Shown here: piece by piece, positions 2,978 through 36,452 of the stretch
Numbering within the stretch: the stretch's first letter is position 1
Layout of the letters: every line of letters starts with the position of its first letter
Assembly (NCBI GenBank): GCA_017441845.1
Contig: JAFRVB010000005.1
Location: 22,150-86,149 of the forward strand
Direction of reading: 5' to 3'
DNA: 64,000 nucleotides
DNA from: Bacilli bacterium
GTDB taxonomy: Bacteria; Bacillota_I; Bacilli_A; RF39; UBA660
The notes under the pieces: generated by a model
The model's database searches: none
What the model was told of the DNA's origin: nothing
Seen by the model: the letters and a program-made list of their open reading frames with translations, nothing else
Position numbers and translations under genes: made by a program

Positions 2978-5128
2978 ATGAAATATAGTATGAAGAAAAA
3001 TTATAAATTTTATATAACAGTATTCCTTGTAATATTAATGATAATAACTACACTAATAAGTGTAGGTTTTGGTGCTTTAAATCAAAATTTAAATATAGCT
3101 GGTGATGTTGAATATACTGAAGATGTTAGTAATATGATTAAATCTTGGCCTTATAATAAGAATACAGAATTTCAAAATTCTACATACAGAAATAAAATCA
3201 AAACAGTAGATTTTTTAGATAATAAAACTATTCCTAGTAGTGCTGTTATTTCTTGGGATGTATCAGTAAATAGTGATGGAAAAGTAATGGCTTGGTTAAT
3301 GGATGATCCAAATAACGCTGGATTTTACAAATTGTACATTGGTGCAGATGGCGATGTAATTGCTAATACTAATTCAGAAAATTTGTTCAGTAATTTATTA
3401 GAAGTGGAAACGATTAATATTAATAATAATTTTGATACTTCAAAAGCAACTAATATGGATTCAATGTTTTCTGGATGTAAGAAAATAGTAAATATTGATT
3501 TAAGTGATTTTAATACATCAAGGGTTTCGTATATGAGATATATGTTTTCTGGATGTAGTAGTTTGACAAATATTGATTTAACGACTTTTGATATAAGTAG
3601 AGTATCATATATGACATATATGTTTTCTGATTGTTCAAGTTTGACAAATTTTAGTTTGACAAATTGTGATACCCCGTTTCTTATGAATATGGAAAATATG
3701 TTTAGAGGATGTAGTAGTCTAACTAGTATTAGCCTAACGAATTTTACTAATCCTATACTTCAAACTATGCATTGGATGTTTAATGATTGTACTAATCTAA
3801 CAACTATAAATCTAAGCGGTTTTAATACTTCGGATGTGTCAGATATGTCGTATGTATTTTATAATTGTAGCAGTTTGCAAAGTATAGACTTAACCGACTT
3901 TAATACAAGCAATGTAATAGATATGTCATTTATGTTTTGTAATTGCAGTAGTTTAACAAATTTAGATCTACGAAGTTTTAATACAAGTAGGGTAACAGAC
4001 ATGGATATGATGTTTGATGATTGTGGTAAATTAACAAGTCTTGATTTAACAAACTTTAATACAAGTAATGTAACAAATATGGGATGTATGTTTTCAAATT
4101 GTCAAAGACTAGTTAGTGTTGATTTAAGTACTTTTAATACCTCAAAAGTAATAGATATGACATGTATGTTCCTGGGATGTAATACTTTGACAAGTTTAGA
4201 TTTAAGTACGTTCAATACCTCAAAAGTTACAGATATGAGTAATATGTTTGATTCTTGTACAAATTTATCAAATTTAAATATAAGTAATTTTAATACTTCC
4301 AAAGTGACTAAAATGCAATATATGTTTTCATCTTGTGGTAATCTGACAAATCTCAATTTAAGTCACTTTGATACATCATCAGTAACTAATATGAGAAGTA
4401 TGTTTGATAAATGTTATGGTTTAACAAGTTTAGATGTAACAAACTTTAATACAGATAATGTAACAGATATGTATAGTATATTTTCTACTTGTACTAGGTT
4501 AACAAGTTTAGATGTTACAAGTTTTAGTACGACTAATGTAACAACTATGGAACGTATGTTTTATGGTTGTAGTAGTTTAACAAGCTTAGATGTAACCAAC
4601 TTTGATACATCCAAAGTAACAAATATGTATTGTATGTTTTATGGTTGTAGTAGTTTAACAAGCTTAGATGTATCACATTTTAATACAAGCAGTTCAACAA
4701 ATATGCAAAGTATGTTTTATGGTTGTAGTAGTTTAACAAGCTTAGATGTAACACACTTTAATACGAGTAATGTAACTACTATGGGAAGAATGTTTGCTGG
4801 ATGCAGTAGTATAAACTCATTATCTTTAAGTAATTTTAACACATCACAAGTAACTGATATGAGTTCTATGTTTTCAGGTTGTAATAGTATGGCAAGTATT
4901 AATTTATCAAGTTTTAATACATCTTCAGTTACAAATATGTCATATATGTTCAATGCATGTAGTTCATTAACTGAAATAAAAATCTCTTCTTTATGGGATG
5001 TGTCTAATGTAACTAGTAGTTCTTATATGTTTTCAAGTTGCACTAATTTACCCAATTATAATTCGAGTTATGTTGATAAAAGTATGGCTAAACCAACAAC
5101 TCAAGGAGGATATTTAACTTTAGTTTGA
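2978..5128 (+). CDS. BspA-type leucine-rich-repeat surface protein (DUF285 / mycoplasma-lipoprotein-type LRR) with an N-terminal signal-anchor
   Basis: About 20 tandem ~26-aa repeats of the form NFNTS.VT.M..MF..CSSLTSLDL; N-terminal hydrophobic segment; no C-terminal sorting signal. Confidence 0.75.
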   Translation: MKYSMKKNYKFYITVFLVILMIITTLISVGFGALNQNLNIAGDVEYTEDVSNMIKSWPYNKNTEFQNSTYRNKIKTVDFLDNKTIPSSAVISWDVSVNSDGKVMAWLMDDPNNAGFYKLYIGADGDVIANTNSENLFSNLLEVETININNNFDTSKATNMDSMFSGCKKIVNIDLSDFNTSRVSYMRYMFSGCSSLTNIDLTTFDISRVSYMTYMFSDCSSLTNFSLTNCDTPFLMNMENMFRGCSSLTSISLTNFTNPILQTMHWMFNDCTNLTTINLSGFNTSDVSDMSYVFYNCSSLQSIDLTDFNTSNVIDMSFMFCNCSSLTNLDLRSFNTSRVTDMDMMFDDCGKLTSLDLTNFNTSNVTNMGCMFSNCQRLVSVDLSTFNTSKVIDMTCMFLGCNTLTSLDLSTFNTSKVTDMSNMFDSCTNLSNLNISNFNTSKVTKMQYMFSSCGNLTNLNLSHFDTSSVTNMRSMFDKCYGLTSLDVTNFNTDNVTDMYSIFSTCTRLTSLDVTSFSTTNVTTMERMFYGCSSLTSLDVTNFDTSKVTNMYCMFYGCSSLTSLDVSHFNTSSSTNMQSMFYGCSSLTSLDVTHFNTSNVTTMGRMFAGCSSINSLSLSNFNTSQVTDMSSMFSGCNSMASINLSSFNTSSVTNMSYMFNACSSLTEIKISSLWDVSNVTSSSYMFSSCTNLPNYNSSYVDKSMAKPTTQGGYLTLV

Positions 5129-7736: not shown

Positions 7737-7813
<77 letters not shown>

Positions 7814-7818
7814 TATAT

Positions 7819-7895
7819 GCCTCAATAGCTCAGTTGGTTAGAGCACTTGACTGTTAATCAAGGGGTCCTAGGTTCAAGTCCTAGTTGGGGCGCCA
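7819..7895 (+). tRNA. tRNA-Asn (anticodon GTT)
   Basis: Acceptor GCCTCAA/TTGGGGC; anticodon loop CTGTTAA; CCA end. Confidence 0.85.
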
Positions 7896-7903
7896 TTTTA
7901 TTT

Positions 7904-7980
7904 GGCGAGTTGGTGAAGCGGCTTAACACACTGCCCTTTCACGGCAGCATTCACGGATTCGAATTCCGTACTCGTCACCA
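7904..7980 (+). tRNA. tRNA-Glu (anticodon TTC)
   Basis: Anticodon stem CTGCC/GGCAG with loop CTTTCAC; T-loop TTCGAAT; CCA end; resembles Bacillus tRNA-Glu. Confidence 0.8.
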
Positions 7981-7985
7981 TTTGT

Positions 7986-8004
7986 TTATTAATCCCGAGA
8001 AAGG
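7986..8004 (+). terminator. Hairpin followed by a T-run downstream of tRNA-Glu
   Basis: cccgagaaagggatttttt. Confidence 0.5.
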
Positions 8005-8055
8005 GATTTTTTATTGACATTTAAGAGCTTTTTATGTCATACTATATATGCAGTC

Positions 8056-8147
8056 GGAGCAGTACTCAAGAGGCTGAAGAGGACAGTTTGCTAAACTGTT
8101 AGATCGGGTATACTGGTGCGAGGGTTCGAATCCCTCCTGCTCCGCCA
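8056..8147 (+). tRNA. tRNA-Ser (anticodon GCT), class II with a long variable arm
   Basis: Acceptor GGAGCAG/CTGCTCC; anticodon loop TTGCTAA; long extra arm; CCA end; a TTGACA promoter-like box lies just upstream. Confidence 0.8.
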
Positions 8148-8256: not shown

Positions 8257-8285
8257 TTGCTTTTTACACCATTTTGTGGTATAAT
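8257..8285 (+). promoter_or_regulatory. Sigma-A-type promoter with an extended -10 element
   Basis: TTGCTT, a 17-nt spacer and TGgTATAAT; this lies inside the N-terminal part of the ORF-track call 8274..9935, so the true start of that gene is 8313. Confidence 0.6.
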
Positions 8286-8312
8286 CTATTCGATTCGAGG
8301 GGGAGTGAAATT

Positions 8313-9935
8313 ATGAACAAGAATTGGAAAATAGTTTTAATGGTAGTTGTTATGTTATTCACAGCAATATTTACTATTACTGATGTTAACGCTACAAATA
8401 CTATTAAGTTAACTAGCAAGTCTTATATTAAGGCTGGTGGAAGAAATCATGCTTGGTTTAAAACAAATGCTGGTTATGCATATTGTATAACTCCAAAGAA
8501 GACAGGTCCTAGTGTTGGTACTAAGATGCATCTTGATAAAGAGATCACTGGTACTAGTGGAAATGTACTTTATTACATGTTAAAGAATGATAATCCAAGC
8601 AATAAAAACAACTATGTTTATACACAAGCTGCTATCTGGAGATATTATAATAATTATGTTCCTTATAAATCAGGATCAACTGTAATATCTAAGAGTAAAA
8701 CTATAGTTAGCAAAGCTAAAGCTTCTAAAGCTACACCAAAGAGAGTTGGTATTACTGTAGTTAATAAATCAGGTTCTATGTCTATTAGTAGTGATAATAA
8801 ATATTATCAATCTGGTAAGTTTACTATTAAAACTACAAGTGGTACAAAATATACTGCAAGTGTTAGTGGAAAAGCTTATATTGTAAACGTTAGTGGAAAC
8901 AAGCAAACAACATTTAATTCTGGAGATAGTTTCTATGTTAGAGTAAATGATGCTGACGTTACTAAAAGTCTTACATTTACTATAACTATTAAAACTTCAG
9001 GAACTAATGAATATGTTAGAGTTTACTCAACTGGAAAGAGCTCTTATCAAAAATTAGTATTATTAGATAGTGAGAGTAAATCTGCATCTAAACAACTTAG
9101 TGTTGCAGTTACTCCAGTTAAGAGAGTTTGTACTTATGTTAATGGTAAGTACTATGGTAAAAACGGTACAGTAGTTTCAGAGGCTACATATAAAGATGAA
9201 TGTATGCCAAAATGTGAAGAAAAAGATGGTAAATACTACGATGATAAAGGTAACACTGTTGATAAGGTTACTTATATAAAAATTTGTAAAAAACCAGTTT
9301 GTTCTAAAGTTGATGATATCTTCTTTGGAAAAGATGGTGAAGTAGTTACTGAAGATGTATTTAGGGATCAATGTATGCCAAAATGTGAAGAAAAAGATGG
9401 TAAATACTTTGACGACAAAGGTAACGAAATTGATAAAATCAACTATTACAAAATATGTATAAAACCAACTTGTGAAAAAATAGATGATACTTACTTTGGT
9501 AAAGACGGAAGTATAGTTACTGAAGAAGAATTTAGTAATCAATGTATTCCTAAATGTATAGAAAAAGATGGAAAATATTATGATGATAAAGGTAATGAAA
9601 CTGACAAAACTACATACATCAAAGTATGTAAAAAACCAATTTGTGAAAAAGTAGATGATACTTATTTCGGTAAAAATGGTGATGTAGTTAGCGAATCTGA
9701 ATACAAAAAACAATGTGTTCATGTTTGTGAAGTTTATAATAACCAATATTATGGTAAAGATGGTCTAGTAGTAAGTAAAGAAACTTACAAAGATGAATGT
9801 GAACATGTAGTTGTTCCTGTTCCAAATACTGGTACTAGCTTATTAGAATCATTATTATATATTGTTTTGGGTACAGGTATTGTACTTGGTGGTTTAGGAT
9901 TTGTTGGTTACCAAAATAAACTTTCTGTAAAGTAA
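8313..9935 (+). CDS. Thioester-domain (TQxA-type) cell-wall-anchored adhesin with Cys-rich tandem repeats
   Basis: Signal peptide MNKNWKIVLMVVVMLF after the gagggggag RBS; Cys in NAGYAYCITPKK and the TQxAIW motif YVYTQAAIWRY; about 3.5 repeats of 57 aa each with 4 Cys; C-terminal PVPNTG, then a hydrophobic stretch and a basic tail. Confidence 0.7.
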   Translation: MNKNWKIVLMVVVMLFTAIFTITDVNATNTIKLTSKSYIKAGGRNHAWFKTNAGYAYCITPKKTGPSVGTKMHLDKEITGTSGNVLYYMLKNDNPSNKNNYVYTQAAIWRYYNNYVPYKSGSTVISKSKTIVSKAKASKATPKRVGITVVNKSGSMSISSDNKYYQSGKFTIKTTSGTKYTASVSGKAYIVNVSGNKQTTFNSGDSFYVRVNDADVTKSLTFTITIKTSGTNEYVRVYSTGKSSYQKLVLLDSESKSASKQLSVAVTPVKRVCTYVNGKYYGKNGTVVSEATYKDECMPKCEEKDGKYYDDKGNTVDKVTYIKICKKPVCSKVDDIFFGKDGEVVTEDVFRDQCMPKCEEKDGKYFDDKGNEIDKINYYKICIKPTCEKIDDTYFGKDGSIVTEEEFSNQCIPKCIEKDGKYYDDKGNETDKTTYIKVCKKPICEKVDDTYFGKNGDVVSESEYKKQCVHVCEVYNNQYYGKDGLVVSKETYKDECEHVVVPVPNTGTSLLESLLYIVLGTGIVLGGLGFVGYQNKLSVK

Positions 9936-9970: not shown

Positions 9971-10027
9971 TTGCTATAGTAGAGAGAAACCGAAATTTAT
10001 GGTATACTAAAGTGAGGAGTGATATTT

Positions 10028-13000
10028 ATGGATATAATGAAGAGATTTAACCAAAATTATAATGAGATTGAAAACTATTATAATTTTTTAGTCCAAAAAA
10101 CAAAGAAGCATGAATTCGTTGGTGTAATTAATGAATGGTTAATTGATAACTTTTATTTATTAGTTGAACATAAGAATGGTTTTATGCATGAAAAGAAAAA
10201 CATTCGTAAACATAATAAATTATATAATCAATTATATCCACGTATTAATGATATTGTTGTATCTAAGAATTATAATATCACTTTTAAAATACTATGTGAT
10301 GAATTAAGGAATTATCAAAAAACTAATAAAATGTATTTTACTTATAAAGAATTAGATAGTTTAAAGATAGTATTATTATGTATTTATGTTAATAGATTAA
10401 GTGTTCTATGCAAAGAAGAGCATAAAAAATTAATGGATATTGAAGAAATCAATAGAGTTATTTCTGCTCATGAAAATAAAGAATTAGTTCTTAGTAATTT
10501 CTTTTCTACAAAGAAAATAGAAGAGAATTATCATTATATTTTTGAACTTAATAATAGGTTAAAAGAATTAGGATCTAAAACTAATAAAATATTTAAAGAA
10601 TTAAATACTTTATTAGAAGAAAATAATATTTCATTAAAAGAGATTATTAATGATGAATATCAAAATAAAATGGATAATGATATTTTAGTATCTAATATTT
10701 TTAATGACTTAAAAGAATTTACTGAGTTTGATTCAGAAGATTTATTTGAAAGAGTTTCTAATTGTGAAAAGTTATTCTTAAATGATGAAGTATATGATAA
10801 GATGACTATCGAATCTAAGAAACTATATAGAAAACAATTACTTAAGTTAGCTAAAAAGAATCATACAGATGAACTTAGTTATTTAGAAAGTATTATGGCT
10901 AAGGGTACAGGAGACAAATATCATATAGGTTTTCAGTTATTTAAACAAAAGAAGTATACTTTGAGAATTGTTTTATATTTATTATCTATATTGATATCTA
11001 CATGTTTAGTTGATTATTTTATATGTGGATTCTTCTTACCTAGCAAATATAAAATAATTAGTTTTATACTTTTGTTTATTCCAATATTTGAATTGTTTAT
11101 TCAAGTAATAAATGAGATTCTAATCAAAACAGTCAAACCTGTAGTAATACCAAAACTTGATTTCTCTAAAGGATTACCTGATGATCAAAAGACTATGGTA
11201 GTTATACCTACTATTGTTGGTAATGAGAAAAAGATTAAAGACATGTTTGATCAATTGGAAATGTATTACATCATGAACAATAAATCTAGCAATATGTATT
11301 TTACATTATTGGGTGATGTTAAGAGTAGTTCAAAAGAAGTAGAAGATTATGATGAAACTATCTCTACATATGGTGAAGAATATGCGACTAAATTAAATAA
11401 AAAATATGGGAAAGAATTATTCTATTTCATTTATCGTAAACGTAAATTTAATCCTAAAGAAGGAGAGTATTTAGGATTTGAAAGAAAGCGTGGAGCTTTA
11501 CTTCAATTTAACAAAGTATTGTTACATGAAATGGATAAAGTAACTTCAGGAGAATACTACAACGTAAATATGCTTCTTGATAAAGATTTGGATATTAAAT
11601 ATGTAATTACTTTAGATACTGATTCTAAATTCGTACTTAATACAGCCTTGAACTTAGTTGGAGCAATGGCTCATCCATTAAATAAACCTGTATTAAATAA
11701 AAATAAGACTAAAGTAGTACAAGGTTATGGTATTATGCAACCTAGAGTATCTATCGATATAGAAGATACTAACAAGAGTTTATATTCACAAATATTTGCT
11801 GGTATTGGTGGATTTGATACTTATACTGCGATCGTACCTAATGTATATCAAGATAACTTTGGAGAAGGTAGTTTCATTGGTAAGGGTATCTATGATTTAA
11901 AAGTTTTTGATACTGTTTTAAATGGAACTTTCCCAGATAATAAGATTTTATCTCACGATTTATTAGAAGGTAATTATATTAGATGTGCTTATATATCTGA
12001 TATTGAATTGATGGATGGTTTCCCTGCAAAGTTCTTACCTGATATGAGTAGACATCATAGATGGGCTAGAGGAGATGCTCAAATTATTGGTTGGATTTTT
12101 GGTAAAGTTAGAAATAGACGTGGAACTAAAGTTAAGAATCCAATTAATTTACTTGGTAGATATAAAATACTAGATAATATCATTAGAATGTTCTTACAAC
12201 CATCATTATTATTAGTAGTTATATTAGCTTTACTATTTAGTAAATATTATTTGTGGTGGTTAGCTTTTGTACTTCTAGAAGTCGCAATACCAATCTTCTT
12301 CTTCTTAAGAAGTAAAATGTATAAAGAAGATTCTGATAAAACAGTAATCTACTATAAGAATTTGTTCTATGGTGGAAAGAGTTTAGTACTTAGATGTTTT
12401 ATAGTGTTTATTACACTTCCTTATAACACTAAAATGTACATGGATGCTTTCTTTAGAACTATGTATAGATTATTAATTTCACATAAGAATTTACTTAATT
12501 GGATTACTGCTGATGAGGCAGAAAAAACAATTAAGGATACATTACCTAATTATTTAAGAAACTTTATATTTAACTTTATTGTAGCGATAGGATTATTTGT
12601 ATACTTTGGATATACTTTCCAAGTAGCTTCATTAGTAGTTGGAATATTATTTATGACAGCTCCATTTATCCTATATGCAATTAGTAGAGATATAGATGAA
12701 AATAAATTAGAACTTAATGAAAAAGAAATAGATAAAGTAAAAGATATTGCTTTTAGAAGTTTCTTATACTTTAAAGATAATGTTAGGGAAGAATTTAATT
12801 ATTTAGTACCTGATAATTATCAAGATAATAGAGAAGAAAAATTAGATTTTAGAACTTCACCTACAGCGATAGCATATTCGCTATTAAGTTATATTTGTGC
12901 AGAAAGATTAGATTTCATTAAGATAAGTGAAGCTATTGAAAACTTAAGAAATATACTAGAGAGTGTTAATGGTTTAAAGAAATGGCATGGTCATTTATAT

Positions 13001-16000
13001 AACTGGTATAACGTTAGAACTAAAGAAGTATTGATGCCTAACTTTGTATCTACAGTTGATTCTGGTAACTTTGTCGCAAGTTTAATTGTAGTTAGAGAAT
13101 ACTTAGAAGAAAATGGTGAAGATGACCTAGTTAAATTATGTGATAAATTAATTAAAAACACTAATTTCAAGAAATTATATACAAAGAAAAATGTCTTTAG
13201 TATAGGTTTTGATGAGAATGAAGGTAAACTTTCAGCATACAATTATAATAAGTTTGCATCTGAATCTCGTCTTACATCTTACTTAGCTATTGCTTTAGGG
13301 GAAATTCCTAATAAGCATTGGTTCTGTTTAGATAAGAGTTTAACAACTTATAGAGGTAGAAAAGGATTACTTTCTTGGAGTGGTACTGCTTTTGAATACT
13401 TTATGCCTTACTTATTTATGAAGAATTATCCTAATACTTTATTAGATGAGAGTTATCAATTCGCAAAATTCTGTAATAAAGAATATATTGAAAGTATCGA
13501 TAGAAACTTACCTTGGGGTATTAGTGAAAGTGCTTATAATGAGTTAGATAATTCACTAAACTACAAGTATTTAGCGTTCGCTACACCTCAATTAAAAGCT
13601 AAAGAGGATCAAGAAAACAGAATAGTTCTTTCACCATATTCATCATTAATGATTATGGATATGGCTCCTCAAGAAGTATATAGAAATATTCAAAAATTCA
13701 AAAAATTAGAGATGTTTTCTAAATACGGTTTCTATGAAGCATATGATTATGATAATAAAGGTATAGTTAAGAGTTACTTTGCTCATCACGTTGGTATGAG
13801 TTTAGTTGGTTTAGCTAATTACTTAAATTCTGATTGTATTAAAAATTATTTCCACAGTAATGTTAATATTAAAACTTACGATATATTATTAAAAGAAAAA
13901 GTACAAATTAAGACTTCTATAGATATGAAGATGGCTAAATATAAGAAATATGATTATCAAAAAGAAGAAGTTCAAAATGATATTAGATCTTTCAATTATA
14001 TTTCATTTATGCCTGAAGTATCAGTATTATCAAATAAGAAATATTGTTTACTTATGAATGATAGAGGAGATTCTTTCTCTAGATATAGAACTTTACAATT
14101 AAATAGATATCGTAAAGTTACTGAACAAGATTATGGTTTGTTCTTATATGTTAAAGATTTAGATAGTGGTTATGTTTTCAGTAATACATTCGCACCAATA
14201 AATAGAAAACCTGATAAATATGAAGTGGTATTTGCTTCAGATAAGATTAAATATCTTAGAAGGGATGGAGATATTTCTACTAAGACAGAAATTGTAGTTA
14301 CTAAGAATCATCATGCTGAAATTAGAAAAATTACTTTCAGAAATGATTCTGAAGAAACTAAACATTTAGAGTTAACTACTTATACTGAACCTATACTTAG
14401 TGAAGTTATGAATGATATTTCTCATAGAGTATTTAATAGTATGTTCTTATCTAGTAGTTTTGATGAAGAGACTAATTCTGTTATTGTTAAGAGAAAAACT
14501 AGAGATGAATCTAATATTAATAGTTATATGGTTAATAGATTAGTTATTCCTGGTAAGAATGATGGATATACTTATGATACTGAGAGAGTTCACTTTATAG
14601 GTAGAAATCACTTTACTAGTGATCCTATAGGTTTAAACCAAGAGTTAACTAACTATGTAGGAGATAATCTAGATCCAATTATTTCAATTAGGAACACTTT
14701 AGATTTAGAACCTAATAGTAGTACTGAAATATTTATATTATGTGGATTTGGTCGTAGTAGAGAACAAATTCATGATATTATTAACAATTATGATACTATT
14801 GATAAGATTGATAAAACATTTGAAGTTTCAACATTGATGAATTTAATTAATACTAAGAACATGCAACTTACTGGTAGTGAGATGAGAACATTTAATATTA
14901 TGTTAAATTACTTATATCAAACTACTAGAATTAGTGTTAATGAAGAAAGACAAGATTTATTAAGAAAGAATGCTTTAGGTCAATCTGGATTATGGAAATT
15001 TGGAGTTAGTGGAGATAGACCAATTATCTCTGTAGAAATTTCTGATATTTCTGATTTAGGATTTATTAATGAGATACTTAAGTGTTATGAGTATTATAAA
15101 AATAATTCTATCTTTGTAGATATTATCATTATTAATAATGAAAATTCTCAATATAAGAAAATTATTAAGAAAGAAGTAGAAGAAGAACTATATAGAATGT
15201 ATACAGTTAATAGTTTCTATCATACTCCAGGATCTGTGACTGTAATAGATAGTAATGATATTACTAGAGAAGATAAATCACTTCTTAATATGGTTCCTAG
15301 ACTTAGATTTGTTATTGAAGATCATAAATCTTTAAAAGAAACAGTTGATAAACTACAAAGAATAAATTCTGTTAGTGATTATGAAACTTATCGATTAGAA
15401 GATAATTTGAAATATGAAAATAAAGAAAAATTAGTCTTTGATAATGGATATGGTGGATTTACTAAGAACGGAACTGAGTATGTCGTTTATAAGATGGATA
15501 CACCTCAACCATGGAGTAACGTAATTGCGAATGAGAATTTTGGTACTGTAGTTACTAATAATGCTTGTGGATTTACTTATGCGATGAATTCTTCTGAATT
15601 TAAATTAACTTCATGGACAAATGATATGATTTGTAATGATAAGAGTGAAGGATTTAAATTTAATGGAAAAGTATTTGATCCTACTAAAGCAGTTCATGGA
15701 TTTGGATATTCTATCTTTACTAGTGAAACAGCTGAGTTAAAACATGAAGTTACAGAGTTTGTTCCTAGAGAAGATAGTATTAAAGTTTATATGATGAAAT
15801 TGGTTAATAAGACTGATAGTAAGAAAGATTTAGAAGTTGAGTATTACATAAATCCAGTACTTGGTAACTTTGAAGAAAAAACTACTCGTCATATATTATC
15901 TGAATTTATGGGTGATGATAATTTCTTAAAGATGAGAAATGTTTATAGTATCAATTATGGTGATATAAATGTATTTATGTCTAGTGACATTAAAATAGAT

Positions 16001-17683
16001 AATGCGGTTACTGAAAAGATGTTAGTTAAATCTATTAGTAGTAATATTAGTTTGGGTGCTCATGAAGAAATGGATTTAGTATATGTACTAGGTTGTGGAA
16101 TGAGTGATAAAGAGTGTATTAATCTTATCGAGAAATATACTAATTTAGCTAATTGTAAAAAAGCATTAAAAGATGTTAAAGATAATTGGAATAGAATACT
16201 AGGTACAGTTAAAGTTAAGAGTAAAGATCCAGCGTTTGACTATATGGTTAATGGTTGGTACTTATATCAAACTATGTCTAGTAGAATTATCGCTAAGACT
16301 GGATTCTATCAAGTCAGTGGTGCTTTTGGATATCGTGATCAGTTACAAGATGCGATGAATATTGCGATAGTAGCTCCTGACTTTACTAGAAATCAAATCT
16401 TAACTAATGCTGCTCATCAATTTAGTGAAGGAGATGTTCTTCACTGGTGGCATGAGAAAAATAAATTTGGATTAAGAAGTAGATTTAAAGATGATTATCT
16501 ATGGTTAATATATGCAACAATTTACTATTTAAGAATTACAGAAGATTTATCTATCTTAGAAGAAAAAGTGCCATTTATTGTTGGAGATAAACTAAGAGAG
16601 TATGAAAATGAAAAAGGAATAATATTCAATTATTCTAGAGAAGAAGTTACTCTTTTAGAGCACTTAGAAAGATCTTTAAATCTAGCTATGAATTCATTAG
16701 GTCGTCACAAATTACCTTTAATGGGTGGTGGAGACTGGAACGATGGTATGAATAAAGTTGGTATCAAAGGACGAGGTGAGTCTGTTTGGTTAGGATTCTT
16801 CTTGTATGAGATTATTGATGACTTTGTTAGAATGAGTAAGAAGTTTGGATTTGAAATTGATAGAGAAAAATATAGTGATTTCAATGATAAGTTAAAAGAA
16901 AACTTAAATAAGAAGGCTTGGGATAAAGAATGGTATTTAAGAGCTTTCTATGACAATGGTGATAAACTTGGTTCGGCTGAGAATACTGAGTGTAAAATTG
17001 ATTTAATTTCTCAAAGTTTCGCTATCCTTTCAAATGTTGCAGATCGTGAAAGAAGAGAAGAAGTTATAAGAGCTGTTGAAAGTAACTTGGTAGATGAGAA
17101 GAGTGGTATTATCAAATTACTTACTCCACCATTTGTTAAGAGCTTAAATAACCCTGGATATATCATGAATTATCCACAAGGTGTTAGAGAAAATGGTGGT
17201 CAATATACTCACAGTGTTGCTTGGTATTTGATGGCCTTAATCAAATCTGGTTATGGTGATAGAGCTTATCGTTATTATCAAATGATTAATCCAGCTACTC
17301 GTGCGATTGATCCAAAGACAGTTAAAAAATATAAAGTTGAACCTTATGTAATTTCTGCTGATATATATTCTGCTGATCATAGAGAAGGAAGAGGAGGTTG
17401 GACTTGGTATACAGGTTCAGCTGGATGGTTCTATAAAGTTGGTATCGTAGATATTCTAGGACTTGATAAGAGAGGCGATAAACTAAGAATTAAGCCTAGC
17501 CTTCCAGTTAAATGGGATAATTGTAAGATAACTTATAATTATATGGATACTGAGTATCATATTGAATATATTAAAGGTAAGAAAGAAGAACTTGTTTTAG
17601 ATGGCAAAGTTATCAATGGATATGAAATTGATCTTGTTAATGATAAAAAAGATCATGAAGTAACTTTATATATTAAGAAATAA
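10028..17683 (+). CDS. Giant membrane glycosyltransferase/glycoside-phosphorylase fusion (GT84-like domain plus C-terminal GH94), resembling cyclic beta-1,2-glucan synthase (Cgs/NdvB)
   Basis: ATG at 10028 after the gaggag RBS; TM clusters around aa 310-360 and 730-900; GT-A-like region with DxD (ITLDTDSKF); C-terminal GH94-type catalytic motif MGGGDWNDGM. Confidence 0.6.
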   Translation: MDIMKRFNQNYNEIENYYNFLVQKTKKHEFVGVINEWLIDNFYLLVEHKNGFMHEKKNIRKHNKLYNQLYPRINDIVVSKNYNITFKILCDELRNYQKTNKMYFTYKELDSLKIVLLCIYVNRLSVLCKEEHKKLMDIEEINRVISAHENKELVLSNFFSTKKIEENYHYIFELNNRLKELGSKTNKIFKELNTLLEENNISLKEIINDEYQNKMDNDILVSNIFNDLKEFTEFDSEDLFERVSNCEKLFLNDEVYDKMTIESKKLYRKQLLKLAKKNHTDELSYLESIMAKGTGDKYHIGFQLFKQKKYTLRIVLYLLSILISTCLVDYFICGFFLPSKYKIISFILLFIPIFELFIQVINEILIKTVKPVVIPKLDFSKGLPDDQKTMVVIPTIVGNEKKIKDMFDQLEMYYIMNNKSSNMYFTLLGDVKSSSKEVEDYDETISTYGEEYATKLNKKYGKELFYFIYRKRKFNPKEGEYLGFERKRGALLQFNKVLLHEMDKVTSGEYYNVNMLLDKDLDIKYVITLDTDSKFVLNTALNLVGAMAHPLNKPVLNKNKTKVVQGYGIMQPRVSIDIEDTNKSLYSQIFAGIGGFDTYTAIVPNVYQDNFGEGSFIGKGIYDLKVFDTVLNGTFPDNKILSHDLLEGNYIRCAYISDIELMDGFPAKFLPDMSRHHRWARGDAQIIGWIFGKVRNRRGTKVKNPINLLGRYKILDNIIRMFLQPSLLLVVILALLFSKYYLWWLAFVLLEVAIPIFFFLRSKMYKEDSDKTVIYYKNLFYGGKSLVLRCFIVFITLPYNTKMYMDAFFRTMYRLLISHKNLLNWITADEAEKTIKDTLPNYLRNFIFNFIVAIGLFVYFGYTFQVASLVVGILFMTAPFILYAISRDIDENKLELNEKEIDKVKDIAFRSFLYFKDNVREEFNYLVPDNYQDNREEKLDFRTSPTAIAYSLLSYICAERLDFIKISEAIENLRNILESVNGLKKWHGHLYNWYNVRTKEVLMPNFVSTVDSGNFVASLIVVREYLEENGEDDLVKLCDKLIKNTNFKKLYTKKNVFSIGFDENEGKLSAYNYNKFASESRLTSYLAIALGEIPNKHWFCLDKSLTTYRGRKGLLSWSGTAFEYFMPYLFMKNYPNTLLDESYQFAKFCNKEYIESIDRNLPWGISESAYNELDNSLNYKYLAFATPQLKAKEDQENRIVLSPYSSLMIMDMAPQEVYRNIQKFKKLEMFSKYGFYEAYDYDNKGIVKSYFAHHVGMSLVGLANYLNSDCIKNYFHSNVNIKTYDILLKEKVQIKTSIDMKMAKYKKYDYQKEEVQNDIRSFNYISFMPEVSVLSNKKYCLLMNDRGDSFSRYRTLQLNRYRKVTEQDYGLFLYVKDLDSGYVFSNTFAPINRKPDKYEVVFASDKIKYLRRDGDISTKTEIVVTKNHHAEIRKITFRNDSEETKHLELTTYTEPILSEVMNDISHRVFNSMFLSSSFDEETNSVIVKRKTRDESNINSYMVNRLVIPGKNDGYTYDTERVHFIGRNHFTSDPIGLNQELTNYVGDNLDPIISIRNTLDLEPNSSTEIFILCGFGRSREQIHDIINNYDTIDKIDKTFEVSTLMNLINTKNMQLTGSEMRTFNIMLNYLYQTTRISVNEERQDLLRKNALGQSGLWKFGVSGDRPIISVEISDISDLGFINEILKCYEYYKNNSIFVDIIIINNENSQYKKIIKKEVEEELYRMYTVNSFYHTPGSVTVIDSNDITREDKSLLNMVPRLRFVIEDHKSLKETVDKLQRINSVSDYETYRLEDNLKYENKEKLVFDNGYGGFTKNGTEYVVYKMDTPQPWSNVIANENFGTVVTNNACGFTYAMNSSEFKLTSWTNDMICNDKSEGFKFNGKVFDPTKAVHGFGYSIFTSETAELKHEVTEFVPREDSIKVYMMKLVNKTDSKKDLEVEYYINPVLGNFEEKTTRHILSEFMGDDNFLKMRNVYSINYGDINVFMSSDIKIDNAVTEKMLVKSISSNISLGAHEEMDLVYVLGCGMSDKECINLIEKYTNLANCKKALKDVKDNWNRILGTVKVKSKDPAFDYMVNGWYLYQTMSSRIIAKTGFYQVSGAFGYRDQLQDAMNIAIVAPDFTRNQILTNAAHQFSEGDVLHWWHEKNKFGLRSRFKDDYLWLIYATIYYLRITEDLSILEEKVPFIVGDKLREYENEKGIIFNYSREEVTLLEHLERSLNLAMNSLGRHKLPLMGGGDWNDGMNKVGIKGRGESVWLGFFLYEIIDDFVRMSKKFGFEIDREKYSDFNDKLKENLNKKAWDKEWYLRAFYDNGDKLGSAENTECKIDLISQSFAILSNVADRERREEVIRAVESNLVDEKSGIIKLLTPPFVKSLNNPGYIMNYPQGVRENGGQYTHSVAWYLMALIKSGYGDRAYRYYQMINPATRAIDPKTVKKYKVEPYVISADIYSADHREGRGGWTWYTGSAGWFYKVGIVDILGLDKRGDKLRIKPSLPVKWDNCKITYNYMDTEYHIEYIKGKKEELVLDGKVINGYEIDLVNDKKDHEVTLYIKK

Positions 17684-28896: not shown

Positions 28897-31800
28897 ATGA
28901 AAAAGAAAAAGGGCATTTTAAAAAGTAAGAAAAAACTTACTGGTGTCATAGTTACAAGTTTGCTTGTGCTTGTAGCTGCACTTGGTTTTTTGATGCCAAA
29001 CAATTTTAAAAGTATTCTAACAAATGTTAGAAATGTTTTTGCTGCTGGTGATGAACCTGTAATCAACAAAGCAAGAACAAATAACGGTGATGGAACTTAT
29101 AAGCTTTCATTATCTGTGAAAGGGGATGCAGAAAAGAAACCTCAAAAGGCAAATGTTATTGTTGTTTTTGATACTTCTAGTAGTATGAATAGAAGTACTG
29201 GTCAAACAGAGACTACTTATACACCAACTTCATCTACTGGAACAGGGTTATATGGTTTAGTTGATGGTGAGTATGTTCCATTAACTCGTACTTCTGAACA
29301 AACAGGACCATGGTGGAATCCACAAACAACATATCACTTTTGGTATGATGGTGTTGAATATACTGGACAACGTTATAATAGACAAGAAGCAAATCAGTCA
29401 AGATTACAAGCTGCTCAAGCTGCAACAAATAGTTTAGCTAACTCTTTACTTTCAAATAATGGAAGAGATGGTAATCCAGATGATACTATTGAGATTGCTT
29501 TAGTAGATTTTGCTAATACTGCTGTAATTGCACAAGCACCAACAACAGATTACGATTCATTTGCTGCTGTAGTTAATAGTCGTGATGCAGGTAATAATAA
29601 CAGAGGTACTAACTGGGAAGCTGGATTTAGAACTGCATTGAATGTGAATTTCAATGATAATGATCCTACATATGTGATTTTTGTATCTGATGGAAATCCA
29701 ACATATTATTTACAAGATCCACAAAATACTCAACGTGGTGGAACTGGAGGAGAGACTACAGATAATATAAATACTTCATATAATCAAGCTGTTCCTGCTG
29801 CACAAGGAGTTGTTAATGCTGGTTATAATCTATATACAATCGGTATTTATGGTAGTGTTGATAGAATGGAAGACATTACTACTGATGCAGGTGCTCCAGC
29901 TGATCATTATTATTCTGCTGCTGATACAGCTGCATTACAAGAGGCATTTGCTGAAATCTTAGCTAAGATAGAAATGTCTGGAATTGGTAGTGCTGTAATT
30001 AATGATGGAACTACTAATCAAGTTTCTACTTCTACTGGTATAGTTGAACTATTAGAAGTTGATGAAAATAGTTATAAGTATTATAAAAATGGAGAAGAAT
30101 GGACTGATCCAGAAAATGATGATGAGATTGCTGCTCATTTAGTTAATGGTGTAGTTAAATGGGATTTATCTAAACTAGGTGTTTTAGAAAATGATGTTAC
30201 TTATGAAGTTACATTTGATGTTTATCCTTCCCAAACTACATATGACTATATTGCTGATTTAGAAAATGGTGTAATTGAATATAGTGATTTACCAACAGAA
30301 GTACAAAAATATTTACATCAAAGTGGTACTGCATTAGAAGGAGAAGGATATAGTTATTCATTAGATACTAATACAGAAGATGTAACATTAACATATGATG
30401 ATACAAGAGATGAAGAAGGACCTCAAACTATTGATTTCAATAAATTGAATTCTGTTGCAACTACTTCTGATACTATCTCAATTTCTAAAGAATGGGATAA
30501 CTCAATTGATAGTAGAACAAAAAGACCAGTTTCTGTTAGAATCTTAAAAACAAATGATGATGGAGAATTCCAAAATTATTGCTTTACTGATAGTTGTACT
30601 GCAGAATTAAATCAAAGTAATAACTGGTCATTAAGTGATATTCATATTGCTACTGGTTTAGCAAGATTATCAGGAAACACATTAACAGTTTTAGATACTG
30701 GTCATGATTATAAATTTGATGAGTTAGGATCTGAAGCTTATAACTGGGAATTAGAAACAGAGACTGTTCACCCTATGTTAATAAATGGTGTTTTAACAAA
30801 ACTAATCCTAGTTGAAGAAGATGCTCCTGATATGGGATCAGATAGTTATAAAACTATTGATGGTAAAGAATACTATAAATTAGATAATGGAAAAGTTTAT
30901 GTTAAATCTAATGATGGAGCTAACATTAAAGCTGAGAATCATCGTAGAAGTAATTTAAATATTAAGAAAAATGTTACTGGAGAAAATGCAAATCCAAATG
31001 ATAAATTTGAATTTACTATTAAAGTAACTCAATTAGATGAAAATGGAGATGCTATTGCTGATGACACAACAACAATCAATGATGATATTTGGTTCTCAAT
31101 TTGTGATACATCAATTGATTCAACTTGTGTAAGTCCAGATAGCTTAGTTAAAGATGATAGTCTTGTTACTGGAGCTCAAAAAGAAATAAGAGATGGAGCT
31201 TGGACAGGATACTATTACACAACAAATGATAGTGAAGTAAAAGTAAACTTAAAAGATAAATATAATATAAGATTTACTAATTTAATTTCAAATACTGACT
31301 TTAGTGTAGTTGAATCTAATAAAGCTAATTATGAATTAGATAAGATTGAGACTACTAGTGGATTTGAATCTGAAAATGATAGTAAAACTATAGATAAAAA
31401 TGCTAAGAAGATTACTGGTCATATTGGTGAAAATAATACTTCTTATCAAGTAGAATATACTAATAAGAATACTGTACCTGAAACTGTTGAAGCAACAGTT
31501 AAGAAAGTATGGGATGACGCTGATAACCAAGATGGTAAGAGACCAACAAGTTTAGAAGTTACATTAAGTAATGGAGATAGTGTTACATTAAATGAAGGTA
31601 ATAACTGGACAGCTACAGTTACAGGATTACCAAAATATATAAATGGTGAAGAAGCTACATATACATGGACTGAAGGAACTTTACCTGAAGGTTATTCAAT
31701 GACTTCAAATACAACTTCAGGAACTATTACTACAATAACTAATAGTCATACTCCAGAAGTAACTGAAGTAAGTGGTACAAAAACTTGGGATGATAAAGAT

Positions 31801-34800
31801 AATATTGATGGTGAGAGACCAGAATTTATCACTGTTAGATTATTAGCTAATGGAGATGAAATTGATTCTCAAACAGTTAGAGCTAAAGAAGATGGAACTT
31901 GGAGTTATTCATTCCCTAACTTACCTAAGTATGAAAATGGAGAAGAAATTAATTATACAGTTACTGAAGATGTAGTTAAATACTATACAACTGAAGTAGA
32001 TGGTTATAATATAACTAATACTCATACATTATTTACTACTGATGTTACAGTTAATAAAACTTGGGATGACGCTAATAACCAAGATGGTAAGAGACCAGGT
32101 TCTGTTACTGTAGTATTAAAAGCTGATGGAGTAGCTATCGAAGATACTGCTACATTAAGTGATAGTAATAATTGGAGTCATACTTGGGAAGATTTAGATA
32201 GAATGAATCTTTCTACTAAACAAAAAATTGTTTATACTGTTGAAGAATTACAAGTTACTGATTATACAAGTGATATTTCAGATCCTGTTATTATAGAACA
32301 AGAAACTGAAACAGACTTTGTATCTACATGGAGTTTTGATGTAACAAACTCTCATACACCAGAAGAAACAGAAGCTACTGTTAAGAAAGTATGGGATGAT
32401 GCTAATAACCAAGATGGTAAGAGACCAGCAAGTTTAGATGTTACATTAAATACTGGAAAAACAGTTACATTAAATGAAGGTAATAGTTGGACAGCAACTG
32501 TTACAGGATTACCTAAATATGCTAATGGACAAGAAATTAAATATTCATGGACTGAAGGAAGTTTACCTGAAGGTTATACAATGACTTCAAATACAACTTC
32601 AGGAACTATTACTACAATAACTAATAGTTATACTCCTGAAGAAACATCTGCTACTGTTAAGAAAGTATGGGATGATGCTAATAACCAAGATGGTAAGAGA
32701 CCAGCAAGCTTAGAAGTTGCATTAAGTAATGGTACTAAAGTAACATTAAGTGATAGTAATAACTGGACAGATACTGTTACAGGATTACCTAAATATGCTA
32801 ATGGACAAGAAATTAAATATTCATGGACTGAAGGAAGTTTACCTCAAGGTTATACAATGACTTCTAATACAACTCAAGGAACTATTACTACAATAACTAA
32901 TAGTCATACTCCAGAAGAAACAGAAGCAACAGTTAAGAAAGTATGGACAGATGCAAATAACCAAGATGGTATTAGACCAGGAAGCTTAGAAGTAACATTA
33001 AGTAACGGAGATAGTGTTACATTAAATGCAAGTAATGGTTGGACACAAACTGTTACAGGACTTCCTAAATATGCTAATGGACAAGAAATTACATATACTT
33101 GGAACGAAGAATCTGTTCCAACTGGATACGAATTAGTTTCTAATAAAACTGAAGGAACTGTTACTACAATTACTAATAAACATACTCCAGAAGTTAGAGA
33201 TGTAAATGTTAAGAAAGAGTGGATTGATGATGGTAATTCTCAAAATACTAGACCAACTTCTGTTACAGTTACATTAAAAGCTAATGGAGAAACTGCAGAT
33301 GTTGATGTTCCAACAGTTACATTAAACGAAAGTAATGGATGGCATTATACATGGACAGGTGTAGATAAGAAAGCAAATGGAGAAGATATTGAATATACTG
33401 TAGTAGAAAATCCAGTTGCTAATTATGATACAGATTATGATGAAACTGATGATGGTATAGTTGTTATTAATACTATTCAAGATCTATCAAAAGATATTCC
33501 TGTTGAAAAAGTATGGGATGATGATAATGATAGAGATGGATTAAGACCTGGAACATTAAAAGTAACTATTACTGGTAGAGTTGGAGATACTATTATTAAA
33601 GGAGCGTCTCAAACAGTTACTCTATCTAATAGTACAAGTTGGAAAGGTACATTTACTAACTTACCTGTATTCAATAAGGGAAAATTAATTAGTTATACTA
33701 TTGAAGAAGAAGATGTTTCTGGATATTCAGTAGTTGAAGAATCTACTAATACTTCTAATGAAGCTGCTGGATTCAAGATAACTAATAAACATGATCCTGT
33801 TAAGATTAAAATTTCAGGTGTTAAAAAATGGGATGATGATGAAAACAGAGATGATGCTAGACCTGGAAGCATTACAGTTAATTTATTAAAGAATGGACAA
33901 TCATTTAAGTCTCAAACTGTAACAGCAGGTGATGATGGTAATTGGTCATTCGAATTTGATGATTTATATAAATGTGAAGGTGGACAAGATATTGTTTATA
34001 CATTAACTGAAGAAACAGTTGATGGATATACAGCTGTAATTGGACAAGTAACTGAAGATACTGAAAATCTTAATAATTACACAGTTACAGTTACTAATAC
34101 TCATACACCTGAAACTATTACATATAAAATTACTAAGTCTTGGGATGATTTAGATAATAATGATGGTGTAAGACCAGCAAGTGTTACTGTTAGATTAAAA
34201 GCTGATGGAGTTGAAATTGCTTCACAAGTATTAAATGAAAGTAATGGATGGACTTATACATTCACTAATTTACCTAAATATAAACAAGGTTCAGTAGGAG
34301 TATTAATTCAATATACAATTGTTGAAGATGAAGTTGAAGGCTATGATGCTAGTTTCACTGATATAGTTAGTGATAAGACTACTACAGCAATTGAAAATAC
34401 AATTACTAATAAACATACTCCAGAATTACATGAAGATATCAAAGTTACTAAGACTTGGGTAGATGAAAATAATAAATATGGTGTAAGACCTGAAAAGATT
34501 ACTGTTAGACTATATGCTAATGGTGAAGAAGTTGATGTTTGTACATTAACTGCTGCTAATGGATGGACTTATACTTGGACAGGTCTACTTAAATATAAAG
34601 ATGGAGTAGAAATAATTTATACAATTTCTGAAGATGCTGTAAGAAATTATAGTACTAAGATAGATGGCTATAATATAACTAATACTTATAATGGTCCACA
34701 TGGAGAAATAGTACCTCCAAATACAATGGTTAGTGGAAGTGCTCTAGGTACTGCAACTAATACAAGTAATGGAGGAAACTTCAGTGTACTATTCCTATTA

Positions 34801-34848
34801 ATCTTAGGAATTGTAGGATTAATGTTCAGAAAAGAAGCAAATAATTAA
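28897..34848 (+). CDS. Giant surface adhesin with an N-terminal VWA domain and about 13 CnaB-type repeat domains
   Basis: Signal peptide; MIDAS motif VIVVFDTSSSM; repeats carrying the WDDANNQDGKRP signature; C-terminal VPPNTM, then a hydrophobic segment and RKEANN (atypical sorting signal). Confidence 0.8.
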   Translation: MKKKKGILKSKKKLTGVIVTSLLVLVAALGFLMPNNFKSILTNVRNVFAAGDEPVINKARTNNGDGTYKLSLSVKGDAEKKPQKANVIVVFDTSSSMNRSTGQTETTYTPTSSTGTGLYGLVDGEYVPLTRTSEQTGPWWNPQTTYHFWYDGVEYTGQRYNRQEANQSRLQAAQAATNSLANSLLSNNGRDGNPDDTIEIALVDFANTAVIAQAPTTDYDSFAAVVNSRDAGNNNRGTNWEAGFRTALNVNFNDNDPTYVIFVSDGNPTYYLQDPQNTQRGGTGGETTDNINTSYNQAVPAAQGVVNAGYNLYTIGIYGSVDRMEDITTDAGAPADHYYSAADTAALQEAFAEILAKIEMSGIGSAVINDGTTNQVSTSTGIVELLEVDENSYKYYKNGEEWTDPENDDEIAAHLVNGVVKWDLSKLGVLENDVTYEVTFDVYPSQTTYDYIADLENGVIEYSDLPTEVQKYLHQSGTALEGEGYSYSLDTNTEDVTLTYDDTRDEEGPQTIDFNKLNSVATTSDTISISKEWDNSIDSRTKRPVSVRILKTNDDGEFQNYCFTDSCTAELNQSNNWSLSDIHIATGLARLSGNTLTVLDTGHDYKFDELGSEAYNWELETETVHPMLINGVLTKLILVEEDAPDMGSDSYKTIDGKEYYKLDNGKVYVKSNDGANIKAENHRRSNLNIKKNVTGENANPNDKFEFTIKVTQLDENGDAIADDTTTINDDIWFSICDTSIDSTCVSPDSLVKDDSLVTGAQKEIRDGAWTGYYYTTNDSEVKVNLKDKYNIRFTNLISNTDFSVVESNKANYELDKIETTSGFESENDSKTIDKNAKKITGHIGENNTSYQVEYTNKNTVPETVEATVKKVWDDADNQDGKRPTSLEVTLSNGDSVTLNEGNNWTATVTGLPKYINGEEATYTWTEGTLPEGYSMTSNTTSGTITTITNSHTPEVTEVSGTKTWDDKDNIDGERPEFITVRLLANGDEIDSQTVRAKEDGTWSYSFPNLPKYENGEEINYTVTEDVVKYYTTEVDGYNITNTHTLFTTDVTVNKTWDDANNQDGKRPGSVTVVLKADGVAIEDTATLSDSNNWSHTWEDLDRMNLSTKQKIVYTVEELQVTDYTSDISDPVIIEQETETDFVSTWSFDVTNSHTPEETEATVKKVWDDANNQDGKRPASLDVTLNTGKTVTLNEGNSWTATVTGLPKYANGQEIKYSWTEGSLPEGYTMTSNTTSGTITTITNSYTPEETSATVKKVWDDANNQDGKRPASLEVALSNGTKVTLSDSNNWTDTVTGLPKYANGQEIKYSWTEGSLPQGYTMTSNTTQGTITTITNSHTPEETEATVKKVWTDANNQDGIRPGSLEVTLSNGDSVTLNASNGWTQTVTGLPKYANGQEITYTWNEESVPTGYELVSNKTEGTVTTITNKHTPEVRDVNVKKEWIDDGNSQNTRPTSVTVTLKANGETADVDVPTVTLNESNGWHYTWTGVDKKANGEDIEYTVVENPVANYDTDYDETDDGIVVINTIQDLSKDIPVEKVWDDDNDRDGLRPGTLKVTITGRVGDTIIKGASQTVTLSNSTSWKGTFTNLPVFNKGKLISYTIEEEDVSGYSVVEESTNTSNEAAGFKITNKHDPVKIKISGVKKWDDDENRDDARPGSITVNLLKNGQSFKSQTVTAGDDGNWSFEFDDLYKCEGGQDIVYTLTEETVDGYTAVIGQVTEDTENLNNYTVTVTNTHTPETITYKITKSWDDLDNNDGVRPASVTVRLKADGVEIASQVLNESNGWTYTFTNLPKYKQGSVGVLIQYTIVEDEVEGYDASFTDIVSDKTTTAIENTITNKHTPELHEDIKVTKTWVDENNKYGVRPEKITVRLYANGEEVDVCTLTAANGWTYTWTGLLKYKDGVEIIYTISEDAVRNYSTKIDGYNITNTYNGPHGEIVPPNTMVSGSALGTATNTSNGGNFSVLFLLILGIVGLMFRKEANN

Positions 34849-34870
34849 TATTTGCTTTTTTTGTTGACAA
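34848..34870 (+). terminator. Rho-independent terminator
   Basis: aagcaaataattaatatttgcttttttt. Confidence 0.6.
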
Positions 34871-34903
34871 ATAAGGTTAAAACCTTTATTATAGTGTGCT
34901 AAT
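34864..34903 (+). promoter_or_regulatory. Promoter module TTGACA-N17-TATTAT followed by the AGTGTGCTAA box (copy 2)
   Basis: Identical -35, spacer length, -10 and downstream box as at 28809-28848. Confidence 0.65.
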
Positions 34904-34946
34904 TAGACACATTGTTGTTTAAAATAGATTGATAGGAGGGTTACGG

Positions 34947-36398: not shown

Positions 36399-36452
36399 TC
36401 TTTTCTTTTTTTATGATCTGTGGTATAATATACGGCAATCGGAGGGGTTATT

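Follow-up and report, generated by a model that had tools for sequence, protein, structure and literature searches.

The stretch of DNA analysed here, which we call the window, comprises 64,000 nucleotides of contig JAFRVB010000005.1 from a Bacilli bacterium (assembly GCA_017441845.1), and its G+C content is 27%. It contains the complete gene of a surface protein of 540 amino acids (aa), whose sequence is identical to NCBI MBQ6538878.1 (P0001 among the proteins compared below). The NCBI name of this entry is already "Cys-Gln thioester bond-forming surface protein", and the exact protein is present on 16-17 metagenomic contigs. We found that the head of the protein is a known class II thioester domain (TED), and that the module from which its stalk is built is undescribed. 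The parts of the gene, all on the + strand, are as follows.

8313-9935, + strand: complete gene of the surface protein, 540 aa
8313-8393, + strand (aa 1-27, MNKNWKIVLMVVVMLFTAIFTITDVNA): predicted Sec-type signal peptide with a basic N-terminus, a hydrophobic core and VNA at the putative cleavage site
8394-9110, + strand (aa 28-266): class II thioester domain, modelled as a β-barrel, a three-helix bundle, an inserted β-sandwich and a long P/Q hairpin
8484-8486, + strand: codon of Cys58, in YCIT ([YFL]CΦζ motif) within YAYCITPKK; predicted thioester cysteine, invariant in 88 of 88 relatives and aligned with Cys71 of BaTIE
8622-8639, + strand (aa 104-109): TQAAIW motif within YVYTQAAIW, on predicted helix α2, flanking the predicted bond and not a partner in it
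8751-8948, + strand (about aa 147-212): β-sandwich insert, the defining feature of class II, placed by DSSP of the model and by best fold matches that are class II
9048-9050, + strand: codon of Gln246, in YQKLV (ΦQζΦΦ motif); predicted thioester glutamine, invariant in 88 of 88 relatives
9129-9800, + strand (aa 273-496): stalk of eight C-x23-C units with linkers of 3-4 aa, arranged as a 171-bp (57-aa) super-repeat
9819-9932, + strand: putative cell-wall sorting signal, with VPNTG at 9819-9833 (aa 503-507), a hydrophobic stretch at 9834-9911 and the tail QNKLSVK

An earlier note, made from the DNA letters alone, had taken the protein for a thioester-domain adhesin, and the comparisons made here bear this out. 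The Pfam model TED (PF08341) matches aa 55-133 with 25.6 bits for the whole protein and 28.8 bits for an N-terminal fragment, above its gathering cut-off of 22, and it matches 50 of the 88 relatives at E<=1e-3. The sole NCBIfam match is that of the TQXA model, which scores 14.3 bits and lies below its cut-off of 30.4. A search of the PDB sequences with the single protein gave no relevant match, and a family profile was needed. This profile was built from an alignment of aa 28-300 with 87 relatives (28-81% identical), on which the head model is also based, and it finds BaTIE with an E value of 7.7e-20 and SaTIE-TED with 4e-7.

The AlphaFold2 model of the head has a mean predicted local distance difference test (pLDDT) score of 95.7. 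In a Foldseek comparison with the PDB the best E value was obtained for BaTIE (6FWV; E 2e-14, template modelling (TM) score 0.62), followed by EfmTIE86-TED (6FWY; E 1.4e-13, TM 0.65 over 287 columns), while the class I TED of C. perfringens (5A0G) matched far more weakly (E 1.5e-3, TM about 0.3). Class II TEDs are characterised by a β-sandwich of about 75 residues, inserted after helix α3 and before strand P, and by an extended P/Q hairpin that leads back to the barrel and bears the bonding glutamine (Miller et al. 2018, PMC6194298). According to DSSP, the head model runs through barrel strands, three helices, strands at aa 147-212 and a long hairpin at aa 220-266, which is the class II order. 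By sequence and by modelled fold alike the head is a class II TED, and a thioester bond is predicted for it.

It could be argued that the domain is a degenerate relic, which no longer forms the bond and serves adhesion by non-covalent contacts only or has another role. The modest Pfam score, the TQXA score below cut-off and the loss of the TQ glutamine in some relatives would fit such a decay. On the other hand, Cys58 and Gln246 are invariant across 88 relatives whose identity is just about 30-40%, and the fold, modelled with very high confidence, matches TEDs whose thioesters have been shown experimentally. We therefore consider a relic highly improbable.

The bonding residues of TEDs sit in the motifs [YFL]CΦζ and ΦQζΦΦ, the latter on strand Q, and the bonding cysteine and glutamine alone are universally conserved, whereas the TQxxΦW motif flanks the thioester and is not the source of its glutamine (PMC6194298). 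In our model Gln246 lies at the tip of the long hairpin, at the start of its second strand. Within TQAAIW, Ala107 and Trp109 are invariant and Gln105 is kept in 83 of the 88 relatives; the remaining five carry Arg, Gly or Thr at this position, and the same five retain both Cys58 and Gln246. The predicted thioester is thus Cys58-Gln246. The earlier note had named the cysteine and the TQxA(I/V)W motif as the hallmark pair of internal-thioester adhesins; both motifs are indeed present, but given the predicted Cys58-Gln246 bond the pairing with the TQ glutamine is wrong. The correction matters for any mutagenesis or mass-spectrometry work on the protein.

The predicted bond spans 188 residues, compared with 195 in BaTIE, 204 in EfmTIE86 and 171 in SaTIE. 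One observation speaks against the exact assignment, namely that the bonding Gln266 of BaTIE aligns one residue before Gln246, in HMMER and MAFFT alignments alike. Judged from the sequences, this offset reflects an uncertain alignment register at the tip of the hairpin, where Gln246 is the only conserved glutamine, and the register is not fully settled.

The stalk was described in the earlier note as about 3.5 repeats of 57 aa with four cysteines each. A Cys-rich tandem repeat is indeed present, but count and unit have to be revised, as there are four 57-aa super-repeats, each of which consists of two C-x23-C units of 25 aa with two cysteines. At the DNA level TRF reports a period of 171 bp with 2.9 copies, 78% matches and a score of 597, far beyond chance. 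The eight units lie at aa 273-297, 301-325, 330-354, 358-382, 387-411, 415-439, 444-468 and 472-496, contain 16 cysteines and, with their linkers, take up aa 273-496 completely. The seven linkers (MPK, KKPV, MPK, IKPT, IPK, KKPI and VHV) mostly contain proline, and one contains histidine. Two types of unit alternate, the first reading CEEKDGKYYDDKGN...C followed by KKPx and the second CxKxDDxYFGKDG...QC followed by xPK, and it is this alternation that gives rise to the 57-aa (171-bp) super-repeat. Over 830 units from 120 relatives the consensus of the unit is C-E-K-V-[GDN]-[GDN]-K-Y-[FY]-G-K-[DN]-G-x-E-V-[DTS]-E-x-x-Y-x-x-Q-C.

Structure prediction, which the earlier note had suggested for the domain and the repeats, gave confident results not only for the head but also for the stalk, with the same fold in all eight units. 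The AlphaFold2 model of aa 265-503, computed with 53 relatives, reaches a pLDDT of 89.6. Each unit is modelled with strands at positions 2-4 and 7-9, a short strand at 15-16 and a helix at 18-25 that ends at Cys25. The predicted TM (pTM) score of 0.51 suggests that the orientation between the units is not fixed.

The length of the stalk shifts in steps of 57 aa, that is of two units, by recombination between the 171-bp DNA repeats. P0004 lacks precisely a single 57-aa block and otherwise equals MBQ6538878.1. Among close relatives lengths of 483, 540, 568 and 597 aa occur, and in the wider family the number of units ranges from 3 to 13. On the opposite strand of the repeats, an open reading frame (ORF) of 189 codons at 9177-9746 (- strand), rich in Phe, Thr and Ile, was rejected as a by-product of the codon pattern of the repeat; it is most likely no gene.

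In MBQ6538878.1 no Pfam or NCBIfam model above cut-off covers the stalk unit. The unit is rare. When 1.84 billion cluster representatives were searched exhaustively by HMMER, a profile of the four super-repeats matched 332 proteins at E<=1e-3. This is the real count; a word-indexed protein search with a profile of the 57-aa repeat had yielded a single match. With an NPxTG-anchored repeat protein as query 86 relatives were found, and a single-protein query of species-representative genomes found one locus, in a Firmicutes metagenome-assembled genome (MAG). Source names among the unit-bearing proteins are limited to three 'Bacilli bacterium' MAG entries.

The 332 proteins are diverse. They include further TED proteins, a large number of proteins that have an NPxTG anchor and an unrelated head, and N-terminally membrane-anchored 'MYTEEYE' proteins; in one of them, P0126, the Cys units occur together with a TED and SpaA-like domains. 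In those that are sortase substrates, the array stands directly before the sorting signal, and the heads above it are of many kinds. The membrane-anchored proteins P0069, P0077, P0109, P0113 and P0127 (MYTEEYE...) show a second architecture of the module, with Pro/Thr-rich linkers between pairs of units and a large, unrelated, Cys-containing C-terminal domain, and they lack a sortase signal.

A comparison of the stalk model with the PDB by Foldseek gave no significant match; the best had an E value of 0.024 and a TM score of about 0.1, and all were hairpin repeats of choline-binding or CROP proteins. The 25-residue Cys-bracketed unit thus has a confidently predicted fold, and no family or structure is on record for it.

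The nature of these weak matches raises the question whether the repeats are a second binding region and not a passive stalk. They would then be a lectin-like or cell-wall-binding array, comparable to choline-binding or CROP repeats, in which the conserved Tyr8, Phe/Tyr9 and Tyr21 would serve to bind glycans, teichoic acids or polysaccharides of plant or host. The core G-K-Y-[YF]-G-K-[DN]-G does look like the hairpin found in cell-wall-binding repeats, all PDB matches, weak as they are, fall into these groups, and single relatives have sub-threshold or isolated Pfam matches to Choline_bind_3, MORN_2 and DUF2963 (in the 88 relatives the isolated matches are one to DUF2963 and one to Choline_bind_3). 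However, the structural matches are not significant, and no repeat family scores above cut-off on MBQ6538878.1, where the hidden Markov models of choline- or cell-wall-binding repeats, MORN_2 and DUF2963 give no match. Moreover, each unit has an additional helix and two cysteines that are absent from those repeats, and the array, which stands below a variable head and before the sorting signal, has a copy number that is free to vary (3-13 units). The variable head, the fixed place before the sorting signal and the free copy number are the behaviour of a spacer, and we regard a binding array as rather unlikely.

Cysteine makes up 7.1% of the stalk and on average 1.2% of the window's remaining ORFs. 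As a rule, cysteine is excluded from the proteins that Firmicutes export (PMC2823432), and reports of adhesin stalks with disulfides come mainly from Actinomycetota (PMC12617251). For both reasons a stalk with 16 cysteines is unusual for a surface protein of Bacilli, as the earlier note had remarked for Gram-positive wall proteins in general.

The best reading of these cysteines, from sequence and model, is one predicted disulfide between Cys1 and Cys25 of each unit, which would staple the ends of the unit together. The disulfide-stabilised modules suggested in the earlier note are thus plausible on indirect evidence. The two Cys columns hold nothing but cysteine throughout the 1447 fully aligned units. 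We looked among these for units in which one or both cysteines are replaced, from whose joint loss the pairing could be deduced, and found none; the partial alignments are truncations. As the array begins and ends with a cysteine, only pairing within units leaves no cysteine orphaned. Disulfides between units, from Cys25 to the next Cys1, were ruled out, as they would leave Cys273 and Cys496 unpaired. The predicted hairpin-plus-helix topology would bring the termini of a unit to the same end, which fits the Cys1-Cys25 pairing.

Of 1618 units, 8 contain additional cysteines, in each case at both position 3 and position 8 and in no case at one of them alone. Such a pair is expected of disulfide partners, because the two positions are cross-strand neighbours in the predicted hairpin. 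The resulting four-Cys units (positions 1, 3, 8 and 25) belong to P0133 and P0173 and resemble a unit with a second disulfide within the hairpin.

Several points weigh against disulfides. The paired additional cysteines come from just these two related proteins. The sample labels, though unverified, suggest an animal gut, where conditions are reducing and disulfides on the cell surface might not last. The Pfam-annotated genes of the window include none that is Dsb-, VKOR- or thioredoxin-like, and the gene neighbourhoods of the relatives contain no conserved sortase or thiol oxidoreductase; only the GH94 neighbour described below recurs there, once. Finally, many relatives have a linker with histidine (C-x-K-H-T-C), which hints at metal binding.

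These points could be accommodated if head and anchor work as we propose and the stalk cysteines remain thiols in a reducing gut and bind a metal such as Zn2+. In that case metal-stabilised knuckles would be strung together in the stalk, and its rigidity would be set by metal and redox state. The commonest linkers in the relatives, KTHT, EKHT and NKHT, create C-x2-H-x-C across each junction, the ββα layout of the unit recalls small zinc-finger folds, no gene for a thiol oxidoreductase was seen in the window, and the labels, unverified as they are, point to an anaerobic gut. In MBQ6538878.1, however, histidine occurs in just one of the seven linkers, two cysteines per unit are insufficient for a site with four ligands unless ligands are shared, and the appearance of additional cysteines solely as a cross-strand pair is the behaviour of disulfides. 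A metal-bound stalk thus appears quite improbable to us, and we retain the Cys1-Cys25 disulfide. In relatives such as P0036 and P0058, the linkers very often have the form x-K-H-T and give C-x-K-H-T-C-E at each junction, where the conserved histidine could mark metal binding.

At the C-terminus VPNTG is followed by a hydrophobic stretch of 26 residues and by QNKLSVK. The earlier note had reported the motif, the hydrophobic stretch and a basic tail; the first two are present as described, and the tail is only weakly basic, with two lysines. VPxT[GAS] is the usual sorting motif of the family, and VPNTG is a variant of the LPXTG type. Motif, hydrophobic segment and tail support the prediction that the protein is anchored by a sortase. 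Against this stands the result that the Pfam model Gram_pos_anchor (PF00746) gives no match to MBQ6538878.1 at E<=1; it does match 16 of the 88 relatives, for instance P0036 with 21.9 bits at a cut-off of 20. The organism makes peptidoglycan, to judge from the genes for a Mur ligase and a D-Ala-D-Ala ligase (Ddl) at 18-2884 of the window. A candidate for the anchoring enzyme is encoded 26 kb downstream of the adhesin gene.

36453-37151, + strand: sortase gene, 232 aa, candidate anchoring enzyme (Pfam Sortase 32.3 bits, cut-off 26.6)

This sortase may not serve the adhesin, because its gene stands beside a pilus cluster, and the pairing of the two is our conjecture. The pilus-type cluster (28897-37151, + strand) encodes a protein of 1983 aa that has one VWA and 11 Cna_B domains, a SpaA-type pilin of 489 aa and the 232-aa sortase, and its C-terminal motifs are VPPNTM and VPPVTG, not LPXTG.

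Upstream of the adhesin gene the following signals can be read directly from the sequence.

8257-8262, + strand: weak -35 element (TTGCTT), paired with the candidate extended -10 element
8277-8285, + strand: possible extended -10 promoter element TGGTATAAT
8297-8305, + strand: ribosome-binding site GAGGGGGAG, 7 nt upstream of the ATG at 8313

The candidate promoter at 8257-8285 was not listed by a consensus promoter scanner, because its -35 element matches the consensus in just three of six bases. A terminator scan found none downstream of the gene.

The neighbouring genes are housekeeping or unrelated: the Mur ligase, Ddl, a DUF285/BspA leucine-rich repeat (LRR) protein and a P-type ATPase, and downstream a GH94 protein and PGI. 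Four tRNA genes (Ile-GAT, Asn-GTT, Glu-TTC and Ser-GCT; 7737-8147, + strand) lie directly upstream of the adhesin gene, and an Rfam scan of the window found tRNAs only. A small ORF at 7847-8017 was discarded as a mere translation of the tRNA genes. The DUF285/BspA-type LRR surface protein (2978-5128, + strand; 716 aa, 26 Cys, Pfam DUF285 E 6e-142) has a polymorphic repeat number, too, since it is 664 or 716 aa long on otherwise identical contigs. Directly downstream of the adhesin gene (10019-17683, + strand) a 2554-aa protein with Glycoamylase and GH94 domains is encoded, which resembles cyclic β-1,2-glucan synthases. A GH94 gene also adjoins the gene of the 38%-identical homologue P0008 (L010), which hints at conserved synteny. 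Two genes away from P0106 (L011, 8001-12414) lies a second TED protein, with a glycosyltransferase-like gene in between; as this locus holds two TED proteins, some genomes carry paralogous TED adhesins side by side.

Taken together, the protein probably serves an uncultured Bacilli bacterium of low GC content (27%) as a sortase-anchored covalent adhesin, in which a thioester head, a disulfide-stapled stalk and a wall anchor are combined. The Sec signal peptide (aa 1-27) would direct its export. The class II TED (aa 28-266) would form the Cys58-Gln246 thioester on its own, a bond expected from modelling and conservation, and TQAAIW (aa 104-109) would pack against it. By homology to SfbI and other TEDs, a nucleophilic amine of a ligand may then attack the thioester, so that the bacterium becomes covalently tied to its target. 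The head would be carried by the eight 25-residue ββα modules, the ends of each being joined by a predicted Cys1-Cys25 disulfide. If the modules are stapled in this way, a pulling force would pass through linkers and disulfides and bypass the fold. The stalk would thus act as a short spacer, resistant to proteases and force, a role that CnaB isopeptide or ester domains have in classical TIE proteins. Isopeptide bonds render CnaB stalks inextensible. At the other end, VPNTG would be cut by a sortase, which would attach the protein to peptidoglycan.

The head adds little, being a further class II thioester adhesin that NCBI already names as such. The useful part is the stalk, a Cys-bracketed module of 25 residues that is restricted to a few hundred proteins of uncultured Bacilli and is reused under many heads. 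If the disulfide staple is real, it would be a third covalent route to force-proof stalks in Firmicutes, beside isopeptide and ester bonds, and the stalk would be very compact and tunable in length. The question would then arise how an apparently anaerobic, cysteine-avoiding lineage oxidises 16 extracellular cysteines, and the module could serve as a small building block in protein engineering. Tentatively, we also propose that the unit is an undescribed family of disulfide-stapled mini-domains. In a lineage of uncultured gut Bacilli it would form a general wall-proximal stalk and, beneath thioester adhesins and many other sortase substrates, take the place of isopeptide and ester domains as an inextensible spacer. 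All this would happen in a phylum believed to keep cysteine out of its exported proteins, and possibly under reducing conditions. Such a use of the unit is quite conceivable, if somewhat short of probable.

Among the known systems, BaTIE (BasC/BA5258, 6FWV) from Bacillus anthracis comes closest. It is likewise sortase-anchored with an N-terminal class II TED, and both heads have the YC(L/I)TP motif, the TQxA(V/I)W helix, the β-sandwich after α3 and the bonding glutamine (predicted for the head described here) at the start of strand Q, while their sequence identity is only about 19%. The stalk of BaTIE consists of three CnaB isopeptide domains (PMC6194298), in contrast to the eight Cys-bracketed 25-aa modules found here, and the sorting motif here is VPNTG. 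The class II fold of the head is also common to EfmTIE86-TED (6FWY, Enterococcus faecium) and SaTIE-TED (6FX6, Staphylococcus aureus), whose stalks have isopeptide domains, in SaTIE together with ester domains, and whose hosts are cultured pathogens. On MBQ6538878.1 Pfam finds no Cna_B, SpaA or ester domain at E<=1, and since it has neither isopeptide nor ester domains it is not a classical TIE protein.

The class I TEDs of SfbI, Cpa and CpTIE (5A0L, 5A0G) use the chemistry that is predicted here and provide the mechanistic precedent. In SfbI the Cys-Gln thioester is attacked by a lysine of fibrinogen, which results in covalent adhesion (PMC4450167). Unlike the head described here they have no β-sandwich insert, and the fold match to them is correspondingly weak.

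As regards the stalk, CW_binding_1, Choline_bind_3, the CROPs of clostridial toxins, MORN_2 and DUF2963 are also tandem units of about 20-30 aa with a β-hairpin and an aromatic-aromatic-x-x-x-Gly core, but they lack the flanking cysteines and the C-terminal helix, and neither their sequences nor their structures match significantly. The stalk domains CnaB and SpaA of Gram-positive pilins and adhesins have an unrelated fold, are about 90 aa long compared with 25 aa, and are cross-linked by a Lys-Asn isopeptide bond where a disulfide is proposed here. The stalk unit is no member of their family, but the role that we propose for it is the same, an intradomain covalent cross-link that withstands force and proteases.

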